In this document: in pieces, positions 1 to 17,929 of the stretch
Layout: the number at the start of each line of letters is the position of its first letter
Numbering within the stretch: position 1 is the first letter of the stretch
NCBI GenBank assembly: GCA_016196885.1
Contig: JACPWU010000065.1
Location: forward strand, 1-17,929
Origin: Chlamydiota bacterium
GTDB lineage: Bacteria > Auribacterota > JACPWU01
DNA length: 17,929 bases
Direction: 5' to 3'
Position numbers and translations under genes: made by a program
Notes under the pieces: model-generated
The model's input: only the letters and a program-made list of their open reading frames with translations
The model's database searches: none
What the model was told of the DNA's origin: nothing

Positions 1-3000
1 CTGATCAAAGAAAACCTCCTTAGTTCGAACTAAGCCCATCGCTTCAATCACTTCGTGATCTGCCTCTGGAAATAGGATGTGCGCAGTTTCATGCACAATT
101 GTGGCCTCATCCAGCAGCTCTACCTGAAAGAATATTTCCTTGCCCACAGGGTCCGTGAAGCCAACCGCGATTGTGGGTAATCGCATGGCCTCCTGTAGTA
201 GCATGACGAGGAAGAGAGATACCCCTAAACTAAAAATCACGACCTCAAAAATCGCCCATAGCCTTCTCTTTGTCTCTACCAGGCCAAACACGCCAGCCAC
301 CATCAGGAGTACCGAACACACCATAGCATACAGAAAAGAAGATCCGTGGAAGAGTAAGTTGAGCACGGTGAGTGGAAAGACGTTATGCAAGTGATGAATT
401 TCTTCCGGTGAAAGGCTGGGTTTCACGCGTCGTACCAGCAACGCTTGTTCTTTAACGATCATCTCCACTTGTTTATCGCCAAACCCCCGTCCGACGAGTT
501 CTTCAGTAATCTGTTGCTCCTGACTTAGGGAACCTCGCCCATCCATGCCCTTTATCCCTGTGTTGACCATGAGGCCACCAAGTGCAATACCAGAGAACAA
601 AGGGAGCATGAGCAGTCTGCTTCGAACGCGATGCCATCCCCCATTACCCACGGTGTTAGTTGGGGTCATTAAAGAAACTTCTCCGGTTTCTTTAAGCCGC
701 ATTAAGGATCTAATTTTATTTCGCGGCGAATCCGGCAGACTTTGCCAGAAGGCATAAATCCCTAGAAGAGCGAATGTCCCCAAAACAGCTCCCCATATCA
801 TATTGGAAGATCCGAAAAGCCCTAGCACGCCCCGACTAAGCTCGACCGCCCCAGCCTGATGGGATGCCAAAAGAGCAATCGCCGCGCCCGCCGCTAAAAA
901 TAAGGCCGTGATAAACTCTGTCCCTCCTGAACCTTCTTCACCGAGCGTCCTCGCGCTCCCCGATGCCCCATCAACCACCTGCAAAGTCATGACTTGATCT
1001 TCATCGGGCGCTGACAGTGAAACGGGGCCCTTATCATTATATTCTTTCTCAAAGCGGTAAAAAAAGCCTGGATTTAAAATAGTATTGCCTATCCGCAAAT
1101 TATCGTTCGTCAGCCTTTCCATCTTTAAATCGTAGGCGCCAGGATCAAATTCTGTATATCTATCCAGCGGCACATCTGAAATAAACAATACCCGGCTGCC
1201 ATCTTCACACACTTTTTGCGCCTTTACAGGCCCCTGATAAAAACATTTGTGGGGTTGAAAAGAAAAACTGGTGCTCCAAAAAACATCCATGCCGCGGCTC
1301 AAATACTTTTCTGCTGTTGCATCGGTATCATGGGCATCTCCAATGTAATAAATAATTGCATGGGTTATTCCATCCATTTTAAAGCGAATCAAAGACTTAA
1401 CGCTATCTTGTGGCCTCTCCCTTAAGATACTTCTTTTTGCGCTATAGGGCAGTCTTATTCTTTCTCCACTCATACGATCTAGATACTCCAGAACTCCTCC
1501 TCCTTCACTCCCAATATCCTGATGTTTGTAAAAGACTTTTTCGGTTCCATCATTTAACGTATAAATCAATCCACGCCATTGTGTAGATTCGTATAAAAGA
1601 AATGACCGTTCTGTAACAAAAGGTATTTCCAGGTCCTGAATAAAGCCTGATCTCTCCAGATACTTCATTTTTTCGATTAAGCCATAAGGCCAATCCGCAT
1701 CCTCGCTTACATAGACATGCTGGCTGGGGATCCCCAATGCTTTAGCGACTAAAATGAGGCTAAGATCCTCCCCTGCCGCGGGATAATAAAACCTTACAAA
1801 ACCGTGATTTTGCAATTCCGGAAGGCTGTCAAAAATTTTACGAGCCACTCCTTGGTAGTCCAGTATGGAATTATTTGCTCTGCCGAGCAAATCCGGACTA
1901 AAAGAGCTGGGTTTCTCTGTGTAAGGACTTACAAAATTTTTCTGCGCAGCCCTCAATAATTCAAAAAAGAACAAAGAATTTCTTGTATCAATCACTGTCT
2001 CCAATGTTTCCAGGATATGCTCTATTAAGACGCCTTCAGGTAATATATGAAGGACAGCTTTGACATCCTGAATCGCCAACTCCCTTGCTTCAAAAAGCTC
2101 CTGCAGCATACTGTGCGTAATTCCCACACCCAAGAGGATTTGCAGAATCTCCTTTTTCTTGCTGTGGTTTTGAGCCAGCTTTTCAAAAAAGATCCGATTA
2201 ATCCCGATAGCATCACCCCTCCTCTCAAAAAGTTCATTTGATTGATCAAGAGATACAAGTGTCACAACCGGCGGCCACTGGACAGGCGGATTTTTTAAGC
2301 TGATATCCCTCGCCTCAAGTCCTTTTTTGATTAACGTCATGAGTTCCTGATCCGAGGCAATAACTCCGCTATCTTTCAACTGTTGAATTAATTCTTCCGA
2401 AACAGAAAATCGTGTTGAATGATATGGCAGCAAAGCATTCCCGTCATTCAGTCTTAAATCCTCGAATTGTATTCCATGATTGACAAGCATCGAAACAGCA
2501 TCTTGTGAATGATCCTTTTCATGCAACGGTGCAAACGAGACCGATTCCGGGAGTTCACCGATTCTAGAAAATTCATCTTGTCCCAAAAATTTCCCTGCAT
2601 CTTGAGGGTGCAAATAGCTTTCAAAAAATTCTCTCACGACCTGGGATAGATCCACGTTATCCGGATTTTCAATTGCAATAAATTCGCTGAATAGGTCATC
2701 ATAATCAAATTTAATCCCTTTACTTGCTAAAAATTCCTTCAGCCTTCGGTGCCAGTCATTATGAAGGTTTGCAGGCAGGGTTTCCCCTATCTGGTTTAAC
2801 TCTTTAACAAAGTCATTTCCACCACCTGCTATGCTCTGCAACTGAATCAGTTGTTGCAGCCGCGCGGGAAGATATTGGACCAGATCAAACCGGACAAGGA
2901 GGTTGTTGATAAAGTGGATGCCAATGGGTGCGATAAGGCTGAATAATCCAATGAGGGCGAGATCCGCAACGATAGCCGCTGTGATGGTTTGTGCGGGAAC

Positions 3001-6000
3001 AAGAACAATCAACGCACCAATGATAAATGGCACTGCCGCAAACCATCCCATCGCCCTTCCAAAGTTGAGATGGGCACGGTATTCGACATTCGCTTTGCTC
3101 AGGATGACGTCCTGAGTCAGATTGCCACGGCCTCCTTCGGCAAGCTCTGGCTCCCTCGCAATGACGCCTTGATGTTTCACCCACGCCCCATAATGCGTAT
3201 CAGCAAATTTTCTGGCCTGGTATTCGATGACAAGCGGCATCAGCGCGATGGCAAGAATTCCTCCAGGCAGGACCAGAGCCGGAGCAAGGCTTGATATGCT
3301 GAAAACACCCACCATCAGAGCCCCAATCCCCGCCAGCGTCAGTCCCCTAAAAACCACTTCTTCCCATTGATCTACAGCGCTCAATACCACATTCGCCGCT
3401 GGCTCCGGCAAATACCGCCTGATAAATTCATAGAGCTTGCTCTTATCTAAAATGGATTGCGGTGTCCCCTCATCATTCCAAAAATAAAGCCCTTCCCCAT
3501 GCGCCAGGGGAAATAAAATTGCGCCCAGAGCTAGGCCGATGGCTCGGCCTGACATCAAATCCAAGCCCAGAGTAAGATGAAGTAGCCAAGCAAGCCCTTC
3601 CATTAAAATACCAGTAAATCCAATCTCCTCCCCCCCACTCCATTTCGCTTTCTTTTCATCGGGAACCCCAAACCGATCGAGAAGGCGATAAAAGAAACGC
3701 GTGAGACCAAGAGGGTTTTCACTGTCACTACTTGTTTCTTTGATCTCTAAAGCATGCGACCCGAAATTTGGATTATCTTTGACAAAAAAGTTCCCAGAAG
3801 TAGTTTGGTTTCCAGGAAAGCGTCGATCGGTTTGAATGGGCTCCCCATCTTTCAGACTTTGGAGTCTGATAAAGCGCTCAACGCTTCTGGGTTCATAGTC
3901 TGACGGAGACTTCAGGGAATTTGCCGGAATATGTTGTGGATCGGCCTGGGCAACCATCGACAAACCCATTGAAAATAAGACATTTTCTACTTGTTTTAAG
4001 AGGGCTTGCTGAAGTCCTTGACTTTGGTATCCAGGGGCAAGATAAATAAAATTAGACCCCACAAAAGGAAGCCCATTTTGATCAATACCGAACCAGCATT
4101 TGAGCCAGCCAACTTGTTTCCCACCCCTCGATTCTGTACTCATTTGAAAGAAAAAGGTAGTTGCATCTGTAATCCAGCGATGAGCATTTCTATCATAAAT
4201 ACCATTGCCAAAAGCATTACCCACCTTAGGGTCCGATGTATTACAACAGTGAGCACCATCTGAAAATCTCAAAATTTCAAAAAGATCCCGTTTATCTACA
4301 TAATCTAAATAGACAACAGATGAAATTTCTTGCGCGACAGAAGTCTGTGATGAAAAATTTGAAAAACTTGCTATCAAATCTCCTGCTGTTTCATCGAAGC
4401 TTGCTTTCAAAACTCTCTCATCCATACCAAATTTTTTGGCAAGGTCAGAAAGAAAAGTTCTAAGAGCCTCTTCTGGGGTTATTCCCTTACGTTGCGCACG
4501 ATGTTCCAGAGCGCGAATGACTGTCTCAATGCCCCTTTTGGCGCTTAAGATATCCCAATTTTCGAGCCATGTTTCTTTATTTTTAAGATCGAGTGAATCT
4601 TTTTTGTTTTGAAAGAAAGCCTTGTAATGAGGATTGTCTCTAAAGAAATAACCCCAGCTTTTTGCAGCATCTTTATTCCATTTGATTAAGAGTCCGCCCT
4701 GGAATAATCGTTCGTCAAAATCCCGTATTTTCTCAAACATACCTTGATCACCCACCTGATGGGCCTGGGAAACAATTGCTTCAACCTCCTCTTTCCTCTG
4801 GGAAATTCCTTCAGATCCTTGCTTTTCTAATCGTGCAAGCTCCTTCGAAATAAAGCGAATCATGCTGCTCAATTTAAGAAGATTTGATAAGTTGGCAGAA
4901 GAAGTTTGAAAGCTTTTCTGTGCCTGTTCCCTCATCCCTTCCTGACCCTGATCTTGAGAAATCAAACTATCAATGCGTTGAGGAATAAACCTTCCCTCTC
5001 CATCTAAAAAGGCAGAATTAGTAGGCAGAGAAGGGCGTCCCTTTAACAGAAAATCCATCATCTGGCGAGCGTCCATTTCAGGAACGCCTGCCTTTACAAA
5101 CGCTGATCTGAGGGTGACGTTGACGACCGATGTGTCTTCCAAATCTAAACTTTGAGAAGCCTTCTGAATAATGGCTTTAAATCGGTCATAACTGATAGGG
5201 CTAACCCCCGAATATGAAAAGGGAGAAGGGCGCAAGCAATAATAGGCCAACATGAGATGTTCATCCTGGACAAGTGCTCTTACCATGACCCGATAATCTC
5301 TTAAAGCATCTAATGCCGTTAACTTTTGCTGACCTTCTTTAATCTCTGCAATCGTCATACTTGCGTTACTGACCTTCTCCAACAAAATCCATGGAGGGAC
5401 GATGCTTCCTAATTCTTGATGTGCCGCAGTGAGAATGGGCAATGAATCTTCTTTAATATTAAGATACGCTTCGTCGAGAATTCCTGCTCGTGCCAAACCG
5501 CCGATCACTTCTATTCTTAAACCAGGGTCTATATTAGATTGATAAATAAATGGGTACAGGGCTGACAGACTATGACTTCCTAAAATTGCTAGAATAATCA
5601 ATCTTTCTTGATCGCCCACATCCACATAAAGCTGATCTCGTTTAGAAACACGCGACAGCACAGACTGTGCAACGCCACTCAAATAACTCTGAGCATCATT
5701 GAACCCCGCATGAGTCAGCCAACACATGATCTTTAAAGCCTTTTTAAAATCATCATCTGGACGCTTCCAACGTTTCATTTCACCGCAAAGATAAGCAACA
5801 TCTGTCCGATCTACTTTTCCTTGATCCATGCTGCGAATTTTGACAATTCTGGCTCTCTGGGAAAGGGTCAGACTCTCTTGTCTCATCATGCGATAACACT
5901 GATCTGGATTTCCAAGAATCTCTTCTAAGGAAAATATACCCGCACTCTTCAGTCGACTTAAAACCTCTGTGTTTTCAGGTTTTAAAGGTTCCGAGAAATC

Positions 6001-9000
6001 AGTTAAAAGTCTTGATAACATGATTTGATCATGAAAATAGGAGGTCACGGCATCATGATGCGAAACAAGAGTTTCTACAAGCCTGGCCCAGGCCACTCGC
6101 ATTTCTAAATCTTGATCTGTAAGTCCTCGCTTTACAAGGCTCAAAAAATCATCATCGACCTCTTCCCTTGTCACAAATCCTTTGCTGACCATCACCTCAA
6201 GACTACGAATCACTTTGGAACGAACTGAAGAGTCAATATCACTTTTTACAAGCCCTACAAATCGACGAAAACCATTCTTTCGCTCTAAAACCTCACCTCC
6301 TAAGGCTCCCTTCTCAATCAAAATCCCTAAAGCAATGGCATTGCTTGAAAAACTTTTTCTGGAATAGTGGATCTCGTAAGGTTCTAAATTAGAAAATAAA
6401 TTATCTAAAGGAAGATGCTTTTCTACAAATCTTGCATTCCATACCCCAACTTCTACCAAGATCCCAATCATTTCTGCCGTTTCTTCGTATAGTATTTTCA
6501 AGTCCTTGTTGATCAGCAGCCTCGCAATATTATTCCACAGTTTCTGCGGATCCAAGGAGCGGATCTCCTCTTCATATTGACCTGTCTCTTTTAAGGCTTT
6601 TAGAACGCTCGCACACAACTGAGCATTTCGACCCACACTAATCCGATCTCCTAAAACATTCATTAAATCGTATGCGAGAACTTTCTTTTTTGAGATCCAA
6701 CGACTTCGGATAAGAATTTCAAGGTATTTAAGAATGGAAGTTTCGTTATAATTATGGTGTTGAAGAGAAGAGAGCCAATGGGGTAAAGAAATTTTTCCAA
6801 CAACTTTTTTTCGAGGTATCCATTCTGTATCTACCAACAAGGCAAGCACCTTCAGGGCATTCAAAACATCCTCGCCTTTCCTTCCTTCTCTCAAATAAGG
6901 GATCGCCGTGCTTGCGATTTTATCCATAGCCCCTTTAAATTTTTCATCCACCAAACCCATCTCTATTAATAACCTTAAACTTTTTATAGGAGTTTCTCCC
7001 TCAAATCCAATAAGATAACGAGATATATTCCTCATCCATTGATCTATAGGAAGCTCTTTCCTTAAGATATCTGCGCTAACCCACCCTTTGTCCATCATCA
7101 ATTTTAAACACTCGAGAATATTGAAAATATAATTTCCCCTAGCAAATTGAGCTGACTGCATGAGTGATCTGAGAACTCTTTCTCGATCCTTTTCATGTCC
7201 TTCAAAGAAATCTCCTTGGAGTAAAAACCTTGCTGAATCAGGAGCAAAAAAGAAATAGTCTAATTTTTTTATAGTTTCGTTTAATCCATGAAAAAAATAT
7301 TCTGCTCTCTCTAAATTTTGATCGAGCATCTGAGAAATAGCAGTAGCTGTTTCAGACTGTGATTGAGCTCCCACCATCCCCGCAGGCCATTCAAACTTTC
7401 TGGCAAACCAGGTGCTGTAGAGGCTGTGCAAAATGCCTGCCGTGAGAATCACAAGAGTGCTGGACACAATTACAGGTAAACTCCAAATCAAAGAGATTGC
7501 CACAATCGACAAAAGAGCCACAAGCCGAATCACCAGCCCTGCCCCAGAAAGTTTTCGTAAGGCCTTCCAAAAATCTCGTCCTAATGCCTGTCTTTTTTTA
7601 AATTCGAACTTTCCATTCTCCCAAAAATAAAACCCCTCCCCATGCGCCAGTGGAAACAGAATACCGCTCAGGCCCAAACCCATCACCCGTCCTAATGTCA
7701 GATCCCAACCCCAAGCCAGATGAAGCGCCCAAGCCAAACCCTCAATCAAAACCCCCGTAAATCCAATTTCCTCCACCCCACTCCATTTGGCTTTCTGTTC
7801 ATCAGGAACCCCAAATCGATCGAGAAGACGATAAAACCAAGGCATGAGGCCAAGCGCTCGACCTTGTGAAGGCATCCTAGACGATAGATTTGCTGCATGC
7901 ACAGTTCCACGAACGAGGGGGTTCAGGCCTGCTGGAAGAGAACGAGCACTGTCTGTGGATGGCGGCGGCTTTATTCCCAAATGCCTTCCCAAATCACCCA
8001 GGGGCAGTGTTGGGCGTGTCATCTTGAGAAGACCCAGCCGCGTCACAACGTCCTTCATTTCATCTTCATTGGGCTCGGTGTCAAATAAAACAAATCTTCT
8101 ATAATGTTTGACATCTTCTGTCCCAATGCCGACGAAGATCATGTTCACGCCATATTCTTTTTCAAAATTCTCAACTTTTTTTTCTAATTGTCTCCATTGT
8201 TCTGGAGTGGGAGGGTCGCCAAAGGCTCTTTCCCCTCCATCGGTGAACACAATTTCCACTTTGTTCTTTTGCTTCTTTTTATCCGCATATTTTTGTTTTA
8301 AGCCTTCAATTAAATGCAGGGTATTAATCCCGCCGCCGTCCTGCATGTTCCACATTCTATTGGGACCGGTTCTCACCTTCTCAACATCCCCCGTTTCGTT
8401 GAATCCAAACACAGGATGATAATCTTCCCCGATCACACCGAGTGCGTGTCCGACACTTCTATGGCCCTGTCCCGCCTTTCGCATGAGGGCAGAAAAGAAT
8501 TTCGTAAGTTCGGTGAAGGATCGAACAAGGTTATCTCTCATGGTGATACTTCCGCTGCCATCCACGGTTATTCCCATCCATAGTTCAGGCTCTGCATCTT
8601 CATAGGCGGTTGATTTAATGACGCGGGACATTCCCAGCTGCCACCTTCGCATATCAATTTTTCCAATCCCACTTCTTTTATAAACGTCCTCACCCTGAGG
8701 CTCTGAGGCAAAGAGGGCCATGAGCCGTTTTGCAAATCCTCCCAGTCTCTTGCCGTATTCTTCAAGCCAATCCCCGCTCACTATTTGGCGTCTCCCCGCT
8801 GAAGGCGCCTCTCCTTTAGATTCGCCTGGTTTCCCTCCTGTAGCCTTCCCTTCTTTGTCATGCTCTATTTCTTTGGCGTGGCCCTCACTTCCGCTTTCTT
8901 CCTCTATTTCTATGTTTTGCTCAATTTGCCTCCCAGATGCTTCGTCTAAATCCTCCATTTCCACATTTGGACCTTGCGCCAATCCGTCTGCAATTTCATG

Positions 9001-12000
9001 GATGCTATTTCCTGTTCCACGACCCCCTGCCATCTTGTATCTTCCGCCCTTAGCGCTTGATAAATCGTAATCACCTTGAAATTTCTTTTTCCAGGCCTCT
9101 TGATACATGGCAATCGCGATATTTCTGACGGTTTCATCATTTAATTTAAGTCGCTCAATCGCGTTTAAAATAGCTTGGGCGCGATCATCTTCAAATAGGT
9201 CTGTGATTTCTTCTATGCGTTTTAATTGATCATCCTCTGCATTTTCTCGCTTAAGCATTCTTAAATAGCCGTTGAGGATTCCTTTGGCGGCCTGGCTGTA
9301 ATAGGATTTTTCGTCTTTGTCGGTCTGAAGCTGTCTTGCCAACTCATTTTTTAAATATTCTTTTGGGTTAAGTCCAAAAATGAGGGGGAATAACATGGAG
9401 AAAAGTTCTATGTTGTCATGGAGTTTAATCACCTCTTCTCCATGAAGCCTCATTTGATCTATGAAATGTCCCAGTTCATGAGAGCCAACTTGTGAAAAAG
9501 CGCTTTTCTCGTTCATACCGCTTAAGGCGCTTTTGTAAGCCAGAACGTAATCTCCTCCCTTGAATACTCCCCGTGCCGCTTCTTCCTCGGCAAAGGGGTG
9601 CTTTTCCACCAAATAGGCGTGAAGTGGGAGTTGGGCTTTGTATTTTTCAGCGTTGATTCCCAATTTCTGGAGATCTGATTCTTCGAGTGCGAGGGTTTCT
9701 AAAATAGGTTCGCTGTGAATAAGAAGATAAAGTTTATTCTCCTTTTCAAGGGCAAAACTGAATATAAACCGTTTAAGCGATTCATTTTTAAGGACGATGC
9801 TTCGCAGTTGATTCATGGCTAATTCAATTCCTGTCTCACTCACTTTTTCTCCTTTGAATAAGGCATGAAGATTTTTTGTCCATGCTTCAAGTGCGAAATC
9901 AAGTCCCTGTGTCAGGGTTTCGATTTCTTGCTGCAATGATTCATCCATTGTCCCAGCGCTCAGGGCGAGGAGATAATCGCGTAATACATGATCCAGAAAA
10001 TGTTGGTATTTTTGTAGGGGACTAGAAAGGGTTTGAATCCGATCCAGCTCTGTTCTTATTTTTGAAAGGCTGTATTTAAAATTCAGGTCTTTTTTTATTT
10101 TGATGGGCGGTGCTCTTTCTTTTTCTGACTTTTGAATCGTTCTTTCTACGGTGCCTTCCAAGCGAGGGTAGGTTTTGTAGGTCATTTCGCCACTTGAGGC
10201 AGGTTTCAACTCTTCTATCGGCAAGGCGTTATCAGAATGATATGTCATCGCAGTTCTCACTTGCGCGAAGGATTCAGATCGGTCCAGCTCTTTCATTCGG
10301 CGTGTGTGGAGCCCCATCAGGATTTCCGCGAGATCCTCCCTCTTCACCCGTGGAGATTCTAAATAGCGGTGCAGAACGGGAACCCATATTTTATGGGCTG
10401 ATTCAAGGAGGTCTGGCGAAAAGGTTGAACGACCTTCATAAGTACCCGCGGGATTACCTGCTAAGATGAGAATCACCTCTGGATCAAGCTCTACTTCAAA
10501 TCGAGCACCAGCCAGATAATAGGTGAATTGTCGTCTGCCCTCAAACAGGGGTCTGAGGCAGTGCATGATTTCAGGGGCGGTGTTAGCCTCGTCTATGAAT
10601 AGAATTTTTCTTTGGGTGTGACTCGTCATTCCTTCAGCATTGTAGTATTGACCATTGATTTTACCCAGTTGGCTAAAGAAGCCCTTCATTTGTAATGAGA
10701 GTTGACGCTGGGAGCCCCTCCCTTGCCCCGCTTCCATTCGAGCGATGATGCTGTCCGGTTCCATTCCTTTGTACGCAGTGAGTGTGTGGACAGGGATGCC
10801 TGTGATGGCGCCGAGATTTCGGACAAGGGTGCTTTTGGACCCGCCTGTTTCACCCATGAGGACAATAGGTCGCGGTAAAATGATACGGCCCTGTGTGTCC
10901 CGAATGCGCCGTGTGGCCCACATCACACTTTCCATCACTTCGTTAATCACTCCGTAATGTTTGAGGTAATCCATTTTTGGTACTTCTTCGGGAGGCAAGG
11001 CCGTTTCATTCGGCAAAAGAGGCATTCCCCCGATGGACTCAATGAGGCTTAATTCTAATGTGAGATGATCCGCATCTTCCCGGACTTTTAAGCCTCCAGA
11101 AAGCTCCATTTCTCCGCCTTGATAGAGATAGCGGTTAAACGGGGTCTGAATCGTGTATCCACTTTGCGTCTTTTGTATTTGAATTCCATTGGCAAATGTT
11201 TTCCCGTTTTCCAGCTCTGATTTGGTTATTGGAATCGTCACCGTTTTTCTTTTCACATCTCTTAACTCGTTTTCTAATGCTTGAATAGTTTGAGCGTTGA
11301 TCCCTTCATATCGAAATACTTCTGTGATGAGACGTTCTAAATAAATGGATCTATCAGAGGGTTTGCCGACTTCATTCATGCCTTGTCCGTAAAGGCGAAG
11401 GATGTTGCACAGCACCGTTCTGACAGAATCTATTTCGGTGACGCCACTTGTCATCTGGCGCTTTTTATCCCATAGCACCAGCTCGGCCAAATGTCGAGCA
11501 TCCTTGACGCTGTATCCATATCGAGTGTTCAATTTCTGGCGTTCGATGTTGAGATGGAGATCATGAAGTCCCATGTCCAAATACCACGCCAGTTTTGAGG
11601 ATTGAACGATGAGCGTTTTTTCTTCTTCGGTGAGACCCTCATGATATCGATCAAGGTAGCTCTCCATTTCATCCTCTTCTGTGACAGCGCTCAGGGCAAT
11701 TTTTTGGAATCGGTTGTAAAAGGGTGATGAAAATTGTTTGGTACGAGTGGATGCGGTTGAGGCAACGATGTGAATATGCGAAGGTAAACGGTAATTTTTT
11801 TGCTCAATGCGGATCTCTCCTGTATTTAAAAAATCGTTAAGCCGTTCAAGCTCTTCGTCTCTCAAAAGTTCGAGGCTAGAGAGATAAAGGATTTTGTCCG
11901 GTTCTCCTTGAGAAGGGGGCTTTCCTTCTTCAACCAGATGTTCGCCCAAGAAGCCCAATAAAGTCGCTTCTTCATCGGTTCCTACGGCCAGGCCGTTTTC

Positions 12001-15000
12001 ATCCATAGGACCCTGTTTTAGGCCTCTTTCACCGACCAGTTCCGTGCTGCTTGTAAAAGAAGTGCCATCAAAGACCGCGATTTCCATCCCTGTGACACGA
12101 CCTAATTCTTTGACGAGATCGAGGGGGTCGCTCCCTTGTTCGGCAATGAGTAGGCTGTGAATGGGCTGTGTGTCGCTTTGCTGGCCTGTGCTTCTGGCCA
12201 AGGCCTTCAAGGCCCCCATTTGGCTTTTCACCGGCACAAAATAAGGGGCGTCTTCTCTCTCTTGAACTGAAGAAACATATTTGGGTAATCGGACATTTCC
12301 AATATCCACATGGGTTCCACCGTCTATGATTTTTGTATCATTCTGCCACTCCTGAATATAATTTTTAAATCCCGGGAAAAACTTTTCTACAATTTCTATG
12401 GCGCCTTTTGCGTCCTCTTCATTGAATTGATAAATGTAATTGAGCAATATGCCTTCATAGAGATTCCCGCCCTGCTCGATCAAGCTCGCGATGCGAATAA
12501 GTTCTCGGGGACTGACCCCATATTGATAAGTGTAAAGCTCGTTAAACTCGCTTAATTTAAATTGTTTGACCTCGTCTAATAGAGGCCCTCGATAGGTTTT
12601 ACGGAAGGTCTCGTCCATAATCCATTTCATGGCGATGTGAAGATTAATGAGCGGATTTATTTGGGGCTCGAGCGATCGGGTTCCTTCCCCTGAATAATAC
12701 CGGATCAGCCGTTCATAACTTGCTTGGCTCCATTGATCGGTGATCCAGATTTTTTTTGCGTTCTGTTCGAGGCTTAAGGGCAGTTCTTGACGACTTTGGG
12801 TGATGTCTGACGGGTTATAGGTTGCTATAACTTTGAATAGGGGATGGATTTTAACGGTGCGTTGTATGGGGATCCCTTGATGATAGAGCCCTAGATCAAG
12901 CGTTTCACTCCGTATAATTTGCATGAGAAAGCCCATGAGCTGTATCGCCTGATGGGAGATATTCCCTTCATCCAGACAGAAGACGCCTCCCTTTTCTATA
13001 TAATCTAAAAATTCTGTGAGAAATTTATTTTGATCGTCTCTCGTTGCCGTTAGAATCCATCGCTCATTACGCTGCTCTAATTTGCCAATGAGTTCACCTA
13101 GGTCAATGTCTCGATACATCGAGAGCTTGCGGAATTTTAAATTTAGCCTTCTTGCCAGGTCTTCTGCCAATGCGGTCTTTCCTCCCCCCGGAGGGCCTTC
13201 CAGCAAAATGACATTGCGATCATTTGCGAAACCCATTAGCAGGGCCTCCATGGCGCTGATATTTTCCTGGACCTCGGCCAAGTATTTATTTTTCTGGGCT
13301 GCTTCAAGCGACTGATATTCTGTTGGATATTGCGTGCCATTTATTTTTAAATAAATCACTCCCTCATGTTCGATGTATTTTATTTCTTCAATCGCTTCCG
13401 GAATAAGGTCCTGACGGTATTCGTCTCTTAAGCCGATACCCAATGTGTTATAGGCTATTCTTTTCATTTTTTCAGCGCTTAAAGTTTCCCCCTCTGACGC
13501 CTTCTTTAATGTGTTCACATATTCTTCAAAATCACGCCAGCTAAGTCGGGTATGGCGGTAATGCCCATCCTCTATTTCTTGCCCATATCTTTCCCAAATC
13601 TTAAGGGCATATTCTATGGCGGAGTCTTGAAGGGTCCCCTCAGGTAAATGCTCCGCGATGTAGTGTCTAATCCAGGCATCACAGATTTCGCTCGTGAGAT
13701 GGACTCCCGAGTAGCGCGACAACTCTGCCGCACTCATGGGCAATTTGTCATTTAAAGAAGGCTCTCTGGGTGTGTAAATAAGTCCAACAATTCTAAAATT
13801 TTTGGGCAGTCTCAAATAGCGCCCTTCCTCCAGCAATGGATTTTCTGCATACTGCCTCGCTAAAGCGGGGGTGAGTTCAAGGCGTCCTTCTTGTAACGCA
13901 CGGTTTAAACCGACAGCCGTATCTGCATTCATTTGTTGGAGGTTGTCTATCACCAGGTATTGCGTTTGCTCGGAACTCGCTTGGGCCAGTTCGACAATTT
14001 TAAGCACCGTTCCCGCATAATTGCGAATTTCTCCCGTTTCACCTACACTCACACCCCCCGTCATTCCCTCTAGTTCTGTGAATTCACTCGCGGTGATGTA
14101 ATGCCTCTGGACCTTTTCATTTTTCTTTTCAATGTGGCGTTTCAAGAGTTCAAGCCCGTCTGCCGCGTCGCTCCCCTGAATGAGGATAGGACCCAGCCTA
14201 GCGTCTAAAATCAAATCAAACGCATTTTCGTTACTATAATTTTGCGTGTTAATTTGATGCTTCGCAAAAATAGGGCTTAGCCCTTGACGCACCTCAATTT
14301 CCATCCACATTCCCCACAATGTGATAAGCGCAGCACGTTGATAGGCCTCACCTATCGATTCTCCCTTTTCCCTTAAATGGCGAGTGAGTTTAATGGTTCG
14401 AATCGCGTCTCTTATCGTTAAGACCTGATAGAAGCTTGTAGTCTTCCCTGTCTGGAGCGCTTTTTGTAGGTCGTAATAGAGCTGGGCTAGTTTTTTGCTG
14501 AATAAAGCCCTCCTTTCATCATCAAGTTCAGGATCGTGGACTTTAAATAATTGTGCCATCAAGCGCTCAAGTTCGGACTTGATTTTGTCTTGATAGAGGG
14601 GGTCTTCCTCACCATAGTCATAACCGACCCAGAAATTTTTAGAGTTTCTGGTCAATGCTAAAGGAAGGGGGCCCCGGGCTCGAAAATCGTCGGGATTGAT
14701 ATCTGCGATGTAAAGATTATCGGGTGAAATTGTATTCGTGTAGAAAGGGTCGCCTGCGGGATCGATTTTTGCAATTTCAGGCATTTGCCGCCTCTCATCG
14801 TTTCGGGCAATAGGTGTTAACCAATAGCCCAGGGCCTGCCTTTGAACGGTGTTGAGCTCACTTGTGTGAATGACATGCCCCCCCGATCGTTCCGCCTCCA
14901 AATACGGGGTGTCATTCACAACTTGCATGCCTTCTAATCCTGGCTCTAACCCACCGCGAAATTCCTCAAGCAGGGTCTTGCGATGAGCGGTGTAACCGGT

Positions 15001-17929
15001 GACGCCATAACCCAATATTTTTCCTAACACTTGCGCAAGTTCCGTCTTTCCTTCTCCGCTAGCACCTTCAAGGACGGTGAAAAGGCTTTCCTCCCTTGAC
15101 CCGCTTCCTCTGACATAAATTTGCCTTACCCATTGCCCGATCAGTCTTTTATCCTGTTCCCTCAACACATATCCATAAAGATTTAAAATCATCTCTTCCA
15201 CCCTTTCTTGCGAATGCCCAGCAGCATACCCTAAGAACTCATTCCCAATCTTCACAGGGACTCCATCTGCAATCAGTTGACTGCCTCCTATCCTTAACTC
15301 GCTCGTTTCATAGGGATCAGGCACTTCAGAACCTGGATAGAATAAATTCTGAAACACTTCCCTGAAATTCCTTCGGTCCTTCTCAAATCTAAATCGAAGA
15401 ATCATGTAGCGATAGAGTTCTTCAGCCAAGATGGGAGATGGTTCAAGTTGCGGATTTTCTGCACAGCGGCTTTTTGCGGTGAGGGCAATGTTAATGAGGT
15501 CTTGAGGATACATTCGAAATGAGCTCTGTTGCCATTCTTGATGCTGGATCTGGGTGTAAAATTGGCTTAATTTTTTTGCGGATGTTTCCTCTAGATTTAT
15601 TTTGTTCTTTAACATAGCCTCCATGTCTTTTTCACTCAGCTCACCGGCCTTGTGTTTAATCACGCGATTTAAGAATGCCTCATCTTCTAATTTGCCCCCT
15701 TCGGCCATCGTGAAAATGATGTGTAAATTCTTCGGGATCCGGTACCTCACTCCTGTTTTGGCGATGAAAAGCTCTTTCTCCCATAAAATGGGATTAAATT
15801 CCACACGCAAAGAACCTTCAGCCGCTTCAATGTTGTCCAGGACAAGGTAAATGGGTTTCCCGCCATTAGAGTCAGCCTGAGTGATGAGTCTGGGTAGTAT
15901 TCCTTCGCAAGGCTTCATTTGTCCTGCTTCATCTGGTAAGTCCATTCCAAAAAGTTCAGCACGATCACTGTAACCCGATAATGATGCTCGGTAGGCCGTG
16001 CCCCCGCTTTCTTGGGCCAGCTCAGCCAATGCAACTTTCACACTGTCGGCACTCCCATCCGCTTCCACAACAAGACTTGCCTCGCCCATTTCGCAGGCCC
16101 TTTTAAGGCTCCAATACATCGCTTCATAAGATTCCACTTGATAAAATCGGTTGGAATCTGTTCGCTCAGCTTCAAAAGATCTCATCCAGTATTGATGCAG
16201 TCTCTCTTTTAAATTTTCACCCGATTCTCTATCGCCCAACGCAAGTTTTATAAATAAATCCCTGTGTTCTCTCATGAAACGCTCTAAAATATTCTCTAGC
16301 CAGTTCTTTTCTTCGCCAAAGAGACCGCCGTAAACCGTGTAGACCGTCATCACAAATTTGCCCATGACATCCTTGGCTGCAATCGTTTCATCCTCGCCTA
16401 CGGATAAGTCAGATAAGTAGCGATGAATGAATTCTCTGTGCAACTTGATTAGGTCTCTTACGCTGGTGATCCAGAATGGATCATCCGCATGATAAAGGGT
16501 TGCATATTCCCTTATCTCTTGATCCAGATCCATACTCATGTCAACAATCTCTCGAATATCCCTTTCTGATAAATAAGGCTCTTTCCCGTTTAATTGGTCT
16601 AATATCATTTTGACAATGCTGCTCTTATGAAAATCTTCGAAAGGGACACCTTCCATGAGAAGGCCATATTTATGCCATAAGGCATTATAGATGAGGCTTA
16701 ATCGCTCAGGATTTGTCTCTCTTTCCAGCGCTTCAAATGAAAGTTTCTTTAAGTCCAGACCCTGAATAGCACGTATCCATTGTTGAATCGTTTCATTCGC
16801 ATCTTGAGACTCTGATAGTTTATTCACCATCCAGGGGGTCAGCTGAATTTGGTTTTGGGTCAAAGCTTGAATGATGGGGTGGTCTATAAGAGATGCATAA
16901 CCATCAATCGACGATTGAATGAGAAGATCTGAAGGCTTTCCTAACGACATTATAAGGAGCCCTATTTGATGGCAGAATTGAGCAAATTTTGTCCCGCGGT
17001 TATAATCGTTTAACGACGATTTCTGAACACTCAAAAATTCTTTGATACAACTTTTAAAAGTAAGAACATATAGCTTAGCTACCTCTATATCTGTAATATA
17101 CGGACCGCTATGGATGAGGGCAGTTAATATATCCTTTACCCCGCCTCCGGCCTGCTTGATCCAAGCAGCCACATCCCCTGCCTTCTTTAACACATCTTTT
17201 GCATTGCCTTCTGTCACCTTTGGGCTTTTAAAGAGTTCCGTGATTGCGCTAAACACTGCCTCAATCTCAGGGACTCCGCCTCCTGCCCACTTGATCAACC
17301 GAGCCACATCCCCTGCCTTCTCTAACACATCTTTTGCGTTGTCTTTTGTTACCTTTGGGCTTTTAAATAGCTTGGTCACACCCGATGATATTGCATCGAA
17401 TTCTTCGTCGCTTAAATATCTATTTGAAAATCTAAATTCATTCAGCCAATGAGTTAAAATCGTTTCTTTCGTGTCCTTTCCTTTTCCTCCCACCATCCCC
17501 GCCGGGAAGCTTGTGAATCTCCGTGCGAATCTTGTGCTGTAAAGACTATGCAAAATCCCTGCCGTGAGAATTACAGTACCCATAGATACAATCGCGATCA
17601 TGACTGTCGATGGCAAGTTTAAAGATAGAAGTGTTACGGTAGAGGGCAAATCGCTAGGGATTAAAGGTGTGAATAAAGGGAGCAGCGCAGCAATCCGAAT
17701 CACCAACCCTGTCCCAGAAAGTTTTGCTAAAGCCTTCCAAAAATCTCGTCCTTTAAAATCTTTTCTTTCCTTAAACTCAAGTTGTCCATCCTTCCAAAAA
17801 TAAAGCCCTTCCCAATGAGCCAGTGGAAACAGAATACCGCTCAAGCCCAAAGCCATCACCCGTCCTAATGTCAGATCCCAACCCCAAGCCAGATGAAGCG
17901 CCCAAGCCAAACCCTCAATCAAAACTCCC
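1..17929 (-). CDS. Internal fragment of one giant ORF (5,976 complete codons, no start or stop in the window). It encodes a multi-cassette, multi-pass membrane protein containing a midasin/dynein-like hexa-AAA+ plus MIDAS/VWA unit.
   Basis: Triplet-by-triplet scan of the minus frame (codons on + coordinates 3k-2..3k) found zero stop codons over 17,928 nt. The other five frames are broken (longest ORF in the supplied track is 136 aa). In-frame motifs occur along the whole length: Walker A GPPGGGKT (13174-13197), GASGEGKT (15043-15066) and GETGGSKS (10831-10854); Walker B VFCLDE (12967-12984) and ILFIDE (10588-10605); MIDAS DGSGS (8548-8562); HELGH (9466-9480); HETAH (79-93). Confidence 0.93.
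49..921 (-). other. TM cluster (~6 predicted helices) ending in an HExxH motif, possibly a membrane-embedded zinc metalloprotease-like domain. It continues beyond the window.
   Basis: Hydrophobic segments: FITALFLAAGAAIALLAS, MIWGAVLGTFALLGIYAFW, LLMLPLFSGIALGGLMV, FPLTVLNLLFHGSSFLYAMVCSVLLMVAGVFGLV and LWAIFEVVIFSLGVSLFLVMLL. Then DEATIVHETAHILFPEADHEVIEAMGL, with HETAH at 79-93. Confidence 0.45.
960..2894 (-). other. Soluble region of about 640 aa with no motif I can assign
   Basis: Continuous in-frame translation, for example ...NDWHRRLKEFLASKGIKFDYDDLFSEF...HGFVRFYYPAAGEDLSLILVAKALGIPSQHVYVSEDADWPYG...ITHAIIYYIGDAHDTD... It has a globular-looking composition and no long hydrophobic segments. 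Confidence 0.4.
2895..3360 (-). other. Additional TM-helix cluster following module copy 3
   Basis: Hydrophobic runs: GLTLAGIGALMVGVFSISSLAPALVLPGGILAIALMPLVI and GWFAAVPFIIGALIVLVPAQTITAAIVADLALIGLFSLIAPIGIHFI. Confidence 0.6.
3478..3711 (-). other. Conserved TM module, copy 3 (first hairpin only is conserved)
   Basis: LGLTRFFYRLLDRFGVPDEKKAKWSGGEEIGFTGILMEGLAWLLHLTLGLDLMSGRAIGLALGAILFPLAHGEGLYFW. The last 74 aa (RFFYRLL...YFW) match copy 2 at 56 of 74 positions by hand alignment. Confidence 0.8.
3955..4260 (-). other. Possible GNAT-like (acyl-CoA N-acyltransferase) segment
   Basis: ...QVGWLKCWFGIDQNGLPFVGSNFIYLAPGYQSQGLQQALLKQVENVLFSMGL resembles GNAT motif A (hhV.P.yqgkGhG..Ll..h). The Q/RxxGxG/A signature is imperfect (QSQGLQ). 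Motif-level resemblance only. Confidence 0.3.
5300..7100 (-). other. Degenerate alpha-helical (HEAT/ARM-like) repeat region
   Basis: A recurring motif [LI]xxLh[ED]xG[hydrophobic]xxxxh appears every ~40-60 aa: LKLMMDKGWVSADIL, LRLLIEMGLVDEKF, LKVLALLVDTEWI, LKYLEILIRSRWI, VLKALKETGQY, IGILVEVGVWNARF, LGILIEKGALGGEVL, IRSLEVMVSKGFVTREEV, LSRLKSAGIFSLEEIL, IGGLARAGILDEAYL. Confidence 0.45.
7366..7854 (-). other. Conserved TM module, copy 2 (complete, ~4 predicted TM helices)
   Basis: LGLMPWFYRLLDRFGVPDEQKAKWSGVEEIGFTGVLIEGLAWALHLAWGWDLTLGRVMGLGLSGILFPLAHGEGFYFWENGKFEFKKRQALGRDFWKALRKLSGAGLVIRLVALLSIVAISLIWSLPVIVSSTLVILTAGILHSLYSTWFARKFEWPAGMVGA. Positions 7648-7756 match 17821-17929 at 106 of 109 nt (hand count). 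Confidence 0.8.
8040..8590 (-). other. von Willebrand factor A (VWA) domain with MIDAS motif
   Basis: ELWMGITVDGSGSITMRDN (DxSxS at 8548-8562), MQDGGGINTLHLIEGL (conserved Thr position), KVEIVFTDGGE (TDG Asp) and VNMIFVGIGTEDV. These have the order and spacing expected of a VWA Rossmann-like fold. Confidence 0.8.
8790..8964 (-). other. Acidic low-complexity stretch (about 30% D/E by hand count)
   Basis: VEMEDLDEASGRQIEQNIEIEEESGSEGHAKEIEHDKEGKATGGKPGESKGEAPSAG, located between the AAA+ region/linker and the VWA domain. Confidence 0.7.
9300..9600 (-). other. HExxH (zincin-like) motif region inside the post-ring linker
   Basis: GVFKGGDYVLAYKSALSGMNEKSAFSQVGSHELGHFIDQMRLHGEEVIKLHDNIELFSMLFPLIFGL, with HELGH at 9466-9480 and a further His 7 residues after the second His. 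Confidence 0.45.
10370..10870 (-). other. AAA+ module 6 (canonical Walker A and Walker B)
   Basis: PIVLMGETGGSKSTLVRNLG (Walker A at 10831-10854; the GETG.GK[ST] form is the midasin/RNF213-style P-loop). RKILFIDEAN (Walker B at 10588-10605), then LRPLFEGRRQFTYYLAGARFEVELDPEVILILAGNPAG. Confidence 0.85.
11690..12160 (-). other. AAA+ module 5 (degenerate P-loop)
   Basis: SLLIAEQGSDPLDLVKELG (12121-12156) sits at the P-loop position. Walker-B-like KILYLSSLELL follows, then LNDFLNTGEIRIEQKNYRLPSHIHIVASTAS...FYNRFQKIAL. Confidence 0.55.
12740..13215 (-). other. AAA+ module 4 (canonical Walker A and Walker B, likely hydrolysis-competent)
   Basis: VILLEGPPGGGKTALAEDLARRLN (Walker A at 13174-13197), GGVFCLDEGN (Walker B at 12967-12984), then IPIQRTVKIHPLFKVIATYNPSD. 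This is a typical MoxR/AAA_5 layout. Confidence 0.85.
13740..14200 (-). other. AAA+ module 3 (degenerate P-loop)
   Basis: PILIQGSDAADGLELL (14155-14187) sits where a P-loop is expected. Walker-B-like QYLVIDNLQQ (about 13939-13959) follows, then NRALQEGRLEL...RYLRLPKNFRIVGLIYTP. Confidence 0.55.
14620..15100 (-). other. AAA+ module 2 (intact Walker A, non-canonical Walker B)
   Basis: TVLEGASGEGKTELAQVLG (Walker A at 15043-15066). The Walker B position reads GHVIHTSELN. Downstream LYIADINPDDFRARGPLPLALTRN resembles the AAA_5 'atmNP...L..Al.nR' segment. Confidence 0.7.
15600..16110 (-). other. AAA+ module 1 (AAA_5/midasin-like fold signature, degenerate P-loop)
   Basis: Pseudo-P-loop LVVEADGSADSVK (EADGSADS at 16042-16065) lacks the GK[ST] residues. 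Walker-B-like IYLVLDN (LVLDN at 15832-15846) is followed by EFNPILWEKELFIAKTGVRYRIPKNLHIIFTM. That matches the AAA_5 pattern (LDEin...L..ll....l.ip..ge.i....nFrlfatmN). Confidence 0.6.
17105..17400 (-). repeat. In-frame tandem duplication, 2 copies of a 45-49-aa unit (135-147 nt period)
   Basis: Copy A: FDAISSGVTKLFKSPKVTKDNAKDVLEKAGDVARLIKWAGGGV. Copy B: FSAITELFKSPKVTEGNAKDVLKKAGDVAAWIKQAGGGV. The nucleotide core ccgcctcc...cacatcccctgccttct.taacacatcttttgc...cctttgggctttt is seen at 17141 onward and again at 17276 onward. Confidence 0.85.
17485..17929 (-). other. Conserved TM module, copy 1, N-terminally truncated by the window edge (predicted ~4 TM helices)
   Basis: Translation: GVLIEGLAWALHLAWGWDLTLGRVMALGLSGILFPLAHWEGLYFW..GRDFWKALAKLSGTGLVIRIAALLPLF..VMIAIVSMGTVILTAGILHSLYSTRFARRFTSFPAGMVGG. 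These are hydrophobic stretches separated by K/R-rich loops. The module is paralogous to 7366-7854 and 3478-3711. Confidence 0.7.

Follow-up and report, generated by a model that had tools for sequence, protein, structure and literature searches.

The 17,929-nucleotide DNA window analysed here, contig JACPWU010000065.1 of assembly GCA_016196885.1, encodes part of a giant bacterial protein that unites in one polypeptide six tandem AAA+ modules of the AAA_5 type, a linker region, an acidic segment and a VWA domain bearing a MIDAS (metal ion-dependent adhesion site). This arrangement had been proposed from the sequence alone, and Pfam, hhalign and structure models now support it. The ensemble is probably a self-contained AAA+/VWA machine located on the cytoplasmic side of this giant, polytopic protein, that is, a membrane-tethered remodeller that is targeted by its MIDAS. 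In its sequences, it appears to represent a bacterial midasin-like family, and not an orthologue of midasin.

Six-frame translation shows that one minus-strand frame runs through the whole window without a stop (nt 1–17928, 5976 codons). It is open at both ends, having neither a start nor a stop codon, so the protein is longer than 5976 aa; amino acid i begins at window position 17928-3(i-1). The encoded protein is identical to the records MBI1883138.1 and MBI3267371.1, both annotated as "MAG: AAA family ATPase, partial [Chlamydiae bacterium]". Because the frame is open at both ends and these records sit on contigs of 17928 and 17929 nt, the window is an entire contig of a metagenome-assembled genome (MAG) and a fragment of a still larger protein. 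A pseudogene reading was dropped, the frame being intact over 17.9 kb and the family conserved, and five plus-strand open reading frames (ORFs) of 100–136 aa, antisense to the giant frame, are regarded as noise. The conserved part, referred to below as the cassette, spans aa 381–3329 and consists of an N-terminal domain, the AAA+ modules D1 to D6, an HExxH domain, an acidic spacer and the VWA domain.

The Six AAA+ Modules

All six modules, the degenerate D1, D3 and D5 included, are confirmed as AAA+, because structure models, profile–profile comparison and a PDB profile search of the D1 class agree. The sequence-only reading had marked six P-loop positions, and each of them sits on the Walker A site of an AAA+ module or on the degenerate equivalent of such a site. 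Its claim of six AAA modules stands with respect to the fold, but the ATPase motifs are intact in D2, D4 and D6 only. The modules, like the other features located below, lie on the minus strand.

The three even modules belong to the live class, and all of them exceed the cut-off of 22 bits for Pfam AAA_5 (PF07728). D2 (14227–15141, aa 930–1234; 30.7 bits) has the Walker A sequence GASGEGKT at 15043–15066, a variant Walker B of the form [S/N/D]E (here IHTSEL) and a sensor-1 within ADINP. In D4 (12289–13266, aa 1555–1880; 44.8 bits), the corresponding elements are GPPGGGKT at 13174–13197, FCLDEG and ATYNP, and in D6 (10204–10926, aa 2335–2575; 37.7 bits), they are GETGGSKS at 10831–10854, LFIDEA and LAGNP. 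Besides Pfam, the assignment of D2 and D6 draws on hhalign and motif conservation, and that of D4 on a PDB profile match and motif conservation.

The odd modules are degenerate. D1 (15277–16116, aa 605–884) was recognised by hhalign, a PDB profile match and the structure model; its Walker A is absent (EADGSADS at 16042–16065), DN replaces the DE of Walker B, and an invariant arginine lies within AFLNR. D3 (13294–14220, aa 1237–1545), identified by Pfam, hhalign and the model, also has no Walker A (GSDAADGL at 14152–14175), with DN present (LVIDNL) and the invariant arginine within AELSR. Its AAA_5 score of 18.7 bits is below the threshold, and the match runs over profile positions 17–125, nearly the whole profile. 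D5 (11254–12213, aa 1906–2225), for which hhalign and arginine conservation provide the evidence, lacks Walker A (EQGSDPLD at 12118–12141) and DE, and has its invariant arginine within PFYNRF. D1 and D5 gave no match in the Pfam scan, and profile–profile comparison by hhalign is the one approach that places them in the AAA_5 clade.

For this comparison, family alignments of 19–28 sequences per module were set against the six midasin modules, and the resulting probabilities were 97.8% for D1, 98.9% for D2, 77.6% for D3, 99.4% for D4, 96% for D5 and 98.8% for D6. AlphaFold2 was run on two half-arrays, D1–D3 and D4–D6, using alignments with Omnitrophota homologues. The D1–D3 model reached a predicted local distance difference test (pLDDT) of 78.9 and a predicted template modelling score (pTM) of 0.70, with 80–92 pLDDT in the D3 part. 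When compared to the PDB with Foldseek, each half-model matched a row of three AAA modules in cytoplasmic dynein, over ~1050–1090 aligned columns. The top entry was dynein 7z8h (AAA1–AAA3), with E 2e-23 and a template modelling (TM) score of 0.50 for D1–D3, and E 4e-18 for D4–D6. The models also show extra beta-hairpins within the large subdomains. Fewer than six AAA+ folds would have spoken against the sequence-only reading; what was found are half-models that match dynein and midasin profile matches for the degenerate modules. A single-sequence PDB search with aa 601–3400 returned generic P-loop matches only, and a shallow D1–D3 profile had no match in the PDB; it took deeper profiles, one for each module, to go beyond this.

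Alternation of Two Module Classes

Comparison of the modules with each other by hhalign separates them into two classes. The odd modules D1, D3 and D5 match each other at 97–98%, the even modules D2, D4 and D6 at >99%, and odd-versus-even pairs mostly at <6%; the exception is the pair D5–D6, which at 85–88% bridges both classes. These differences are reflected in the motifs of the whole family (19–28 members per module). Even modules keep the Walker A consensus GxxGxGK[ST] and the sensor-1 asparagine, and their Walker B is DE except in D2, where it reads [S/N/D]E; in the odd modules Walker A is absent and there is either DN or no acidic pair. The arginines follow the same division. A late arginine of the xNRF type is present in 20/20, 18/19 and 26/26 sequences of D1, D3 and D5, respectively, and is missing from the even modules, which have a different invariant arginine soon after sensor-1 (24/24, 26/26 and 27/28 sequences of D2, D4 and D6). 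In the secondary structure of the models, a small beta element follows each odd module, before the next even one. In view of the class matches and this beta element, the array is a triplicated dead–live, or odd–even, pair.

Judged by their motifs, D1, D3 and D5 are predicted to be conserved pseudo-ATPases, and D2, D4 and D6 to be catalytically competent. In ring-forming AAA+ proteins, a neighbouring module contributes an arginine to each ATP site. Taken together with this rule, the reciprocal arginine pattern fits live sites at the D2/D3, D4/D5 and D6/D1 interfaces. Most likely, the six modules would form a single closed, pseudo-hexameric ring, and its three ATP sites would lie at these interfaces.

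Domains Around the Array

Ahead of the array lies a family-specific N-terminal domain (16117–16788, aa 381–604), captured by the hidden Markov model (HMM) 'NT' and collinear in all full cassettes. The coordinates 8040–16110 that had been proposed for the unit hold, but the conserved unit starts further upstream, at aa 381 (nt 16788).

The distance from D6 to the acidic stretch is ~430 aa, and it had been described as a helical linker. A region of this kind does follow the ring, but it is no plain spacer; it holds a conserved HExxH 'linker' domain (LNK; 9019–10095, aa 2612–2970), recognised by its conservation and carrying a putative zincin-like metal or peptidase site. HELGH at nt 9466–9480 and NIELF at nt 9400–9414 together form HExxH-x18-E, and this spacing is that of gluzincin peptidases such as the M1 family. 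In 64–66 sequences, H2817, E2818 and H2821 are 98% conserved, N2838 97% and E2840 95%, and four further residues of the domain (P2847, Y2857, Y2876 and N2885) are conserved at 95–98%. The domain gave no significant match in the PDB with either a 5-sequence or a 22-sequence profile, nor in Pfam when 22 members were scanned. Weak matches fell on metallopeptidases only, namely Ste24 (E 0.33), Peptidase_M60 (E 0.018, in 2 of the 22 members) and M90 (E 0.13).

This domain raises the possibility of an ATP-dependent membrane protease, in which the VWA domain would recruit proteins, the ring would unfold or extract them and the HExxH domain would carry out their degradation, making the protein a single-chain analogue of FtsH or of a MoxR–VWA–peptidase system. 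Such a function is plausible since MoxR–VWA–peptidase systems at or near membranes have been proposed (PMC3495828; PMC7159879). The near-invariance of the motif with its gluzincin spacing, the restriction of the weak matches to metallopeptidases and the resemblance of the flanking membrane modules, described below, to CPBP intramembrane proteases all point in this direction. On the other side, neither profile nor structure comparison produced a significant match to any peptidase, and AAA+ rings of the dynein/midasin clade are not known to thread substrates through their pore. The proposal is best held as tentative, a possibility worth keeping in mind rather than the expected answer. The likeness to FtsH-type proteases is that a single polypeptide brings together membrane anchor, AAA+ ring and HExxH domain. 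FtsH, however, is a homo-hexamer of classic-clade AAA subunits with an M41 peptidase, while a peptidase function here is suggested by the motif, and no similarity to FtsH was detected in sequence or profile searches of the PDB and Pfam.

The acidic low-complexity spacer (8788–8964, aa 2989–3047) contains 17 D or E among its 59 residues (29%). It includes the most acidic 40-aa window in the cassette, and its length differs among homologues. The D/E-rich stretch at 8790–8964 noticed earlier is thus real but modest. The VWA domain follows at 7942–8646 (aa 3095–3329). Pfam PF00092 matches aa 3121–3279 with 34 bits, above the cut-off of 23.8, and the MIDAS residues are found in DGSGS (8548–8562), GGINT (8320–8334) and TDGGE (8230–8244). 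The D.S.S element of the MIDAS is present in 27/28 family members, and the VWA domain with a MIDAS that had been placed at 8040–8590 is well founded both in its Pfam score and in this conservation. NCBIfam and PADLOC hold no family for any part of the cassette.

Family, Distribution and Genomic Contexts

In a first protein search, Omnitrophota proteins were found to be 39–43% identical to aa 601–3400 over 94–99% of the span. A scan of GTDB species genomes gave seven loci, six of them with Omnitrophota names and one labelled only "uncultured bacterium", and a search with a linker-domain profile among 1.84 billion representative proteins retrieved 71 representatives. When these 71 were examined with HMMs built for each module, the collinear order NT-D1-D2-D3-D4-D5-D6-LNK-VWA was present in ~20 clusters at 50% identity. 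Proteins with the full cassette measure 2661–7593 aa, often with the VWA domain at the extreme C-terminus; this domain is terminal in the complete members P0093 and P0103, and internal in the window protein. The named carriers of the cassette are Omnitrophota and one Elusimicrobia ("Ca. Liberimonas magnetica"). All these sequences were already public, annotated merely as "AAA family ATPase" or "hypothetical protein". The record of the window itself is labelled Chlamydiae/Chlamydiota, but every named close relative belongs to Omnitrophota, and the taxonomy of the bin may be wrong.

Complete genes of the family occur beside a ribosomal-protein/rpoA operon, beside prfA-secA-lnt, downstream of tatAC and, on a 491-kb contig, among other giant genes. 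No conserved neighbours of complete family members were found. The prokaryotic host suggested by the sequence-only reading is borne out by these bacterial gene contexts and by the names of the homologues, which are Omnitrophota, Elusimicrobia or Chlamydiae.

A further reading is that of a recently transferred or contaminating eukaryotic midasin gene, or of an assembly chimera; in its favour, midasins rank first outside the family in large protein searches. However, identity to midasin is low and limited to the AAA modules, and midasin has neither membrane modules nor an HExxH domain. The homologues are surrounded by bacterial operons, some of them on contigs as long as 491 kb, and the ~20 clusters mentioned above show how deeply the family has diverged. 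Against an artefact, there are also the intact frame and the existence of two near-identical contigs. A eukaryotic contaminant was rejected in view of the bacterial gene contexts of the homologues, and a eukaryotic or artefactual origin as a whole is highly improbable.

Hydrophobic segments precede the cassette in many members; they are found inside it only in P0111, and some members have none anywhere. Since some members are devoid of any hydrophobic segment, membrane tethering is common in the family, but not obligatory.

Several related genes deserve a short description. P0098 has a single D6-type AAA module followed by LNK and VWA. P0062 (L014/L015 8001–11510) and P0061 are Omnitrophota membrane proteins of ~1150 aa that have the same HExxH domain and a C-terminal DUF58, a domain of the type found in MoxR partners; no MoxR gene was found within 8 kb of P0062. 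P0006 (L004 10001–22756), an Elusimicrobia protein of 4251 aa, contains a related AAA array split by an insert of ~1450 aa and ends in a VWA domain, with no HExxH; two S8 peptidase genes lie upstream of it and another VWA protein is encoded downstream. In one Omnitrophota genome, the cassette gene P0003 (L001 3152–12628) ends soon after its VWA domain, and a DDE transposase gene (12707–14059) directly follows. An ORF of 1006 aa ends 130 nt upstream of P0003, and at this locus the giant gene may have been divided or shortened.

Relation to Midasin

The cassette resembles midasin in its layout. In a single chain, an N-terminal domain precedes six tandem AAA_5-type modules, and these are followed by a linker region, an acidic segment and a MIDAS-bearing VWA domain, which is often C-terminal. 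The AAA modules also resemble those of midasin in sequence, and among proteins of solved structure midasin is their nearest relative by a wide margin. In a PDB search, a profile of the D4 class matched the midasin Rea1 with 229 bits (E 2e-67) in five stretches, the best of which was a full-module alignment on AAA5. Bacterial matches of the same profile were NorQ (35.5 bits, 5e-8), CbbQ (31.5 bits, 8e-7), MoxR (30.3 bits, 2e-6) and CobS (26.9 bits), all confined to the surroundings of the P-loop. The D1-class profile recognised midasin chains only (E 4e-27 and 1e-24), the next match being McrB with E 0.19. It prefers the odd midasin modules, scoring 26–27 bits on AAA1, 32–37 on AAA3 and 8–23 on AAA5, and at most 5.5 on the even ones. 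In hhalign, D1 matches AAA1, AAA3 and AAA5 at 97.5–97.8%.

A further parallel is found in midasin itself. When the modules of midasins P0007–P0055 were compared by hhalign, they too fell into an odd (1, 3, 5) and an even (2, 4, 6) class, with within-class values of 7e-41 for M3–M5 and 5e-45 for M2–M4, and values of 1e-17 to 1e-28 for cross-class pairs. Two alternating module classes, odd versus even, are thus shared by both proteins.

The correspondence does not extend to individual positions. The best midasin partner in hhalign is AAA5 for D2, D4 and D5, AAA3 for D1 and D3, and AAA4 for D6. A collinear module orthology, in which D1 would pair with AAA1 and so on, is unsupported; a clear preference for one phase is seen in D1 alone, which favours the odd modules, and the live modules show no phase-specific correspondence to midasin modules. 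By hhalign, the N-terminal domain has no similarity to that of midasin (0.2%), the HExxH linker has none to the midasin linker (0.1%), and the VWA domain shows no specific similarity to the midasin MIDAS domain (3.4%). On these comparisons, the AAA modules appear to be specifically related to those of midasin and the rest of the cassette does not. It is the absence of phase-specific correspondence, together with the dissimilar N-terminal domain, linker and VWA domain, that makes the family look midasin-like without being orthologous. The sequence-only reading had recognised the domain order that defines midasin; the order of six AAA modules, linker, acidic stretch and VWA domain is present, and the ring sequences are closest to those of midasin, but the linker and the N-terminal domain show no similarity to their midasin counterparts and the VWA domain no specific one.

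There are also differences in scale and setting. The MIDAS domain of midasin docks on the ring and binds the UBL (ubiquitin-like) domains found in two factors for ribosome assembly, Rsa4 and Ytm1. These UBL-domain clients are eukaryotic proteins, whereas the present family has a bacterial host and a membrane tether. The midasin linker of ~1700 aa (stem, middle and top) contrasts with an HExxH domain of 360 aa, and its D/E-rich region of ~600 aa is about ten times longer than the 59 aa found here. In midasin, AAA2–AAA5 are all catalytically competent (PMC11603028), while in this family D1, D3 and D5 are dead family-wide.

These observations can be read in terms of convergence, with modules of the MoxR/AAA_5 type concatenated independently in bacteria and joined to a VWA domain, as a fused MoxR–VWA system, and the likeness to midasin being a result of parallel evolution. 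The missing one-to-one correspondence of modules and the unlike N-terminal domain, linker and VWA domain (0.1–3.4%) agree with such a history, as do the single-AAA relative P0098, built of a D6-type AAA, LNK and VWA, and the Omnitrophota family of ~1150 aa that combines LNK with DUF58. The sequences of the modules point the other way. Midasin scores are 35–67 bits per module over the full module, and those of NorQ, CbbQ, MoxR and CobS are 27–35 bits over the P-loop part only. Furthermore, the dead D1 class matches midasin only, with its preference for AAA1, AAA3 and AAA5, and the same alternation of odd and even classes occurs in midasin. An independent assembly is, on balance, somewhat unlikely. 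The stronger claim that the family is a genuine sister to eukaryotic midasin on the prokaryotic side, or its precursor, must be considered doubtful.

Comparison with Other Systems

The motor of the dynein heavy chain resembles the array as a single-chain ring of six AAA+ modules, some of them degenerate, and it is the best structural match of both half-models. The sequence match to dynein is nevertheless far weaker than that to midasin (20.9 bits), and dynein has no VWA domain. Pfam detected no significant dynein-specific N-terminal linker or motor region, and only weak, sub-threshold matches to AAA_6 and AAA_7.

RNF213 is a eukaryotic E3 ligase in which a minority of modules, the adjacent AAA3 and AAA4, are active. 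By its description, it is set apart from the present family, as it has no VWA domain and its active modules are adjacent, while those of the cassette alternate. RNF213 (mysterin) has been described as a giant single-chain ring of six AAA modules (PMC7311170).

Bacterial MoxR–VWA systems (NorQ–NorD, CbbQ–CbbO, RavA–ViaA and CobS–CobT) likewise combine a MoxR-clade AAA+ protein with a VWA/MIDAS partner, and in the D subunit of magnesium chelatase an AAA module, an acidic linker and a VWA domain are fused in one chain. MoxR–VWA systems, however, are homo-hexamers of single-AAA subunits, with the VWA domain usually encoded separately. In the present family, one chain contains six diverged modules of two classes, a single VWA domain and an added HExxH domain.

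From this group comes the idea of a metal-insertion or activase chaperone comparable to NorQ–NorD, CbbQ–CbbO, CobS–CobT or the magnesium chelatase D subunit, whose client would be a metalloenzyme or another part of the giant protein. It draws on the PDB search, in which NorQ, CbbQ, MoxR and CobS scored best among bacterial proteins, on a weak Pfam Mg_chelatase match of D6 (19.9 bits versus a cut-off of 20.3) and on the chelatase D layout of AAA, acidic spacer and VWA; in addition, the HExxH site could bind a metal non-catalytically. Nonetheless, the matches to those four proteins are limited to the P-loop and lie far below midasin, known systems of this type use homo-hexamers, and no candidate client enzyme was found in the neighbourhoods of complete members. 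A role of this kind is quite unlikely.

Flanking Membrane Modules and Other Features of the Window

The sequence-only reading had placed modules of ~4 transmembrane (TM) segments on both sides of the unit, and the hydropathy profile agrees, with about four hydrophobic helices in each flank. The clusters lie at aa 1–126 and 3390–3505, and no hydrophobic segments occur within the cassette of the window protein. Copy 1 of this membrane module (17539–17928, aa 1–130) is cut by the window end and retains ~3–4 hydrophobic helices, with hydropathy peaks at aa 19–37, 72–90 and 108–126, and the motif FPLAH. Copy 2 (7399–7899, aa 3344–3510), 63% identical to copy 1, comprises four hydrophobic helices and contains both EEIGFTG and FPLAH. 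Copy 3 (2884–3756, aa 4725–5015) repeats copies 1 and 2 and adds HFINN; over their common part, the three copies are 63–66% identical.

Copy 3 scores 22.0 bits on the Pfam family Rce1-like/CPBP (PF02517), against a cut-off of 22.4. Of the CPBP/Rce1 motifs EExxxR, FxxxH and HxxxN, the first has its equivalent in EEIGFTG, with T in place of R, the second in FPLAH of all three copies, and the third in HFINN of copy 3 only.

Several further features lie outside the cassette. Between membrane module 1 and the cassette, at 17212–17370 (aa 187–239), there are two tandem units of ~45 aa with the pattern LFKSPKVT..NAKDVL.KAGDVA, identical at 28/40 positions. The region 5329–7311 (aa 3540–4200) is leucine- and charge-rich and includes an internal repeat (aa 3597–3693 versus 3684–3780, 22% identity), with no Pfam family; it may be helical, perhaps of the HEAT/ARM kind. 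A GNAT acetyltransferase match (Acetyltransf_1, 21.8 bits versus a cut-off of 20.7) is located at 3937–4176 (aa 4585–4664), in the interval from the second to the third membrane module. A second HExxH (HETAH, then EADHE) is found at 79–93 (aa 5946–5950), after a hydrophobic cluster at 196–915 and near the C-terminal end of the window, and the region around it has no family match.

Proposed Mechanism

Under the preferred reading, that of a membrane-tethered, MIDAS-targeted remodeller, each dead module would give its invariant arginine to the adjacent live site of the ring. The metal of the MIDAS would capture an acidic residue of a target protein, and the tether between ring and VWA domain would let the latter reach the ring or dock on it. 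ATP-driven movements of the ring would then pull on the target or remodel it at the inner face of the membrane, and the HExxH domain next to the ring may act as a protease on the target or on the giant protein.

Several points weigh against this reading. The D4–D6 model is poor (pLDDT 56, pTM 0.45), and closure of the ring is projected from predictions that cover two half-rings. The role of arginine finger is assigned to particular residues by analogy with AAA+ proteins in general. Having S or N for D in its non-canonical Walker B, D2 may bind ATP without hydrolysing it. The cytoplasmic location of the cassette is deduced from its need for ATP and from the four-helix flanks, and the HExxH domain is possibly a peptidase, going by its motif. 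Finally, the neighbourhoods examined turned up neither a target protein nor a partner gene, and no neighbour was conserved.

Significance

The literature treats rings made of six AAA+ modules in one chain as eukaryotic inventions, the known cases being dynein, midasin and RNF213. Dynein and midasin have been called unusual for their six-module single-chain layout (PMC4047620), and MoxR has been described as giving rise to a six-module protein "early in eukaryotic evolution" (PMC3495828). In the literature searched, no account of a midasin-like protein from bacteria or other prokaryotes was found. A preprint on giant genes of Omnitrophota lists AAA_5 among the frequent intracellular domains, without further analysis, and two other Omnitrophota papers make no mention of AAA, VWA, MoxR or dynein; one of them, also searched for midasin, does not mention it either.

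Midasin has been thought to be without a prokaryotic counterpart, and the family presented here resembles it in layout and in the sequences of the ring. A bacterial family with modules closest to those of midasin makes the origin of six-module motors testable by phylogeny and structure. If the family were indeed a prokaryotic sister or precursor of midasin, a single-chain ring of three odd–even AAA pairs with a MIDAS end would have been present in bacteria, namely in Omnitrophota, Elusimicrobia and other members or neighbours of the PVC group. This would run counter to the idea that the joining of six modules took place in early eukaryotes only, and would offer an outgroup for reconstructing the origin of midasin and perhaps of dynein.

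The array would also represent a simpler ring with three active sites, whose alternation of dead and live modules and reciprocal arginines form a natural experiment on asymmetric AAA+ rings. For the bacteria that carry these genes, the analysis assigns an energy-consuming machine to the cytoplasmic part of giant Omnitrophota-like proteins, for which earlier proposals had considered adhesion and cell-wall degradation only.

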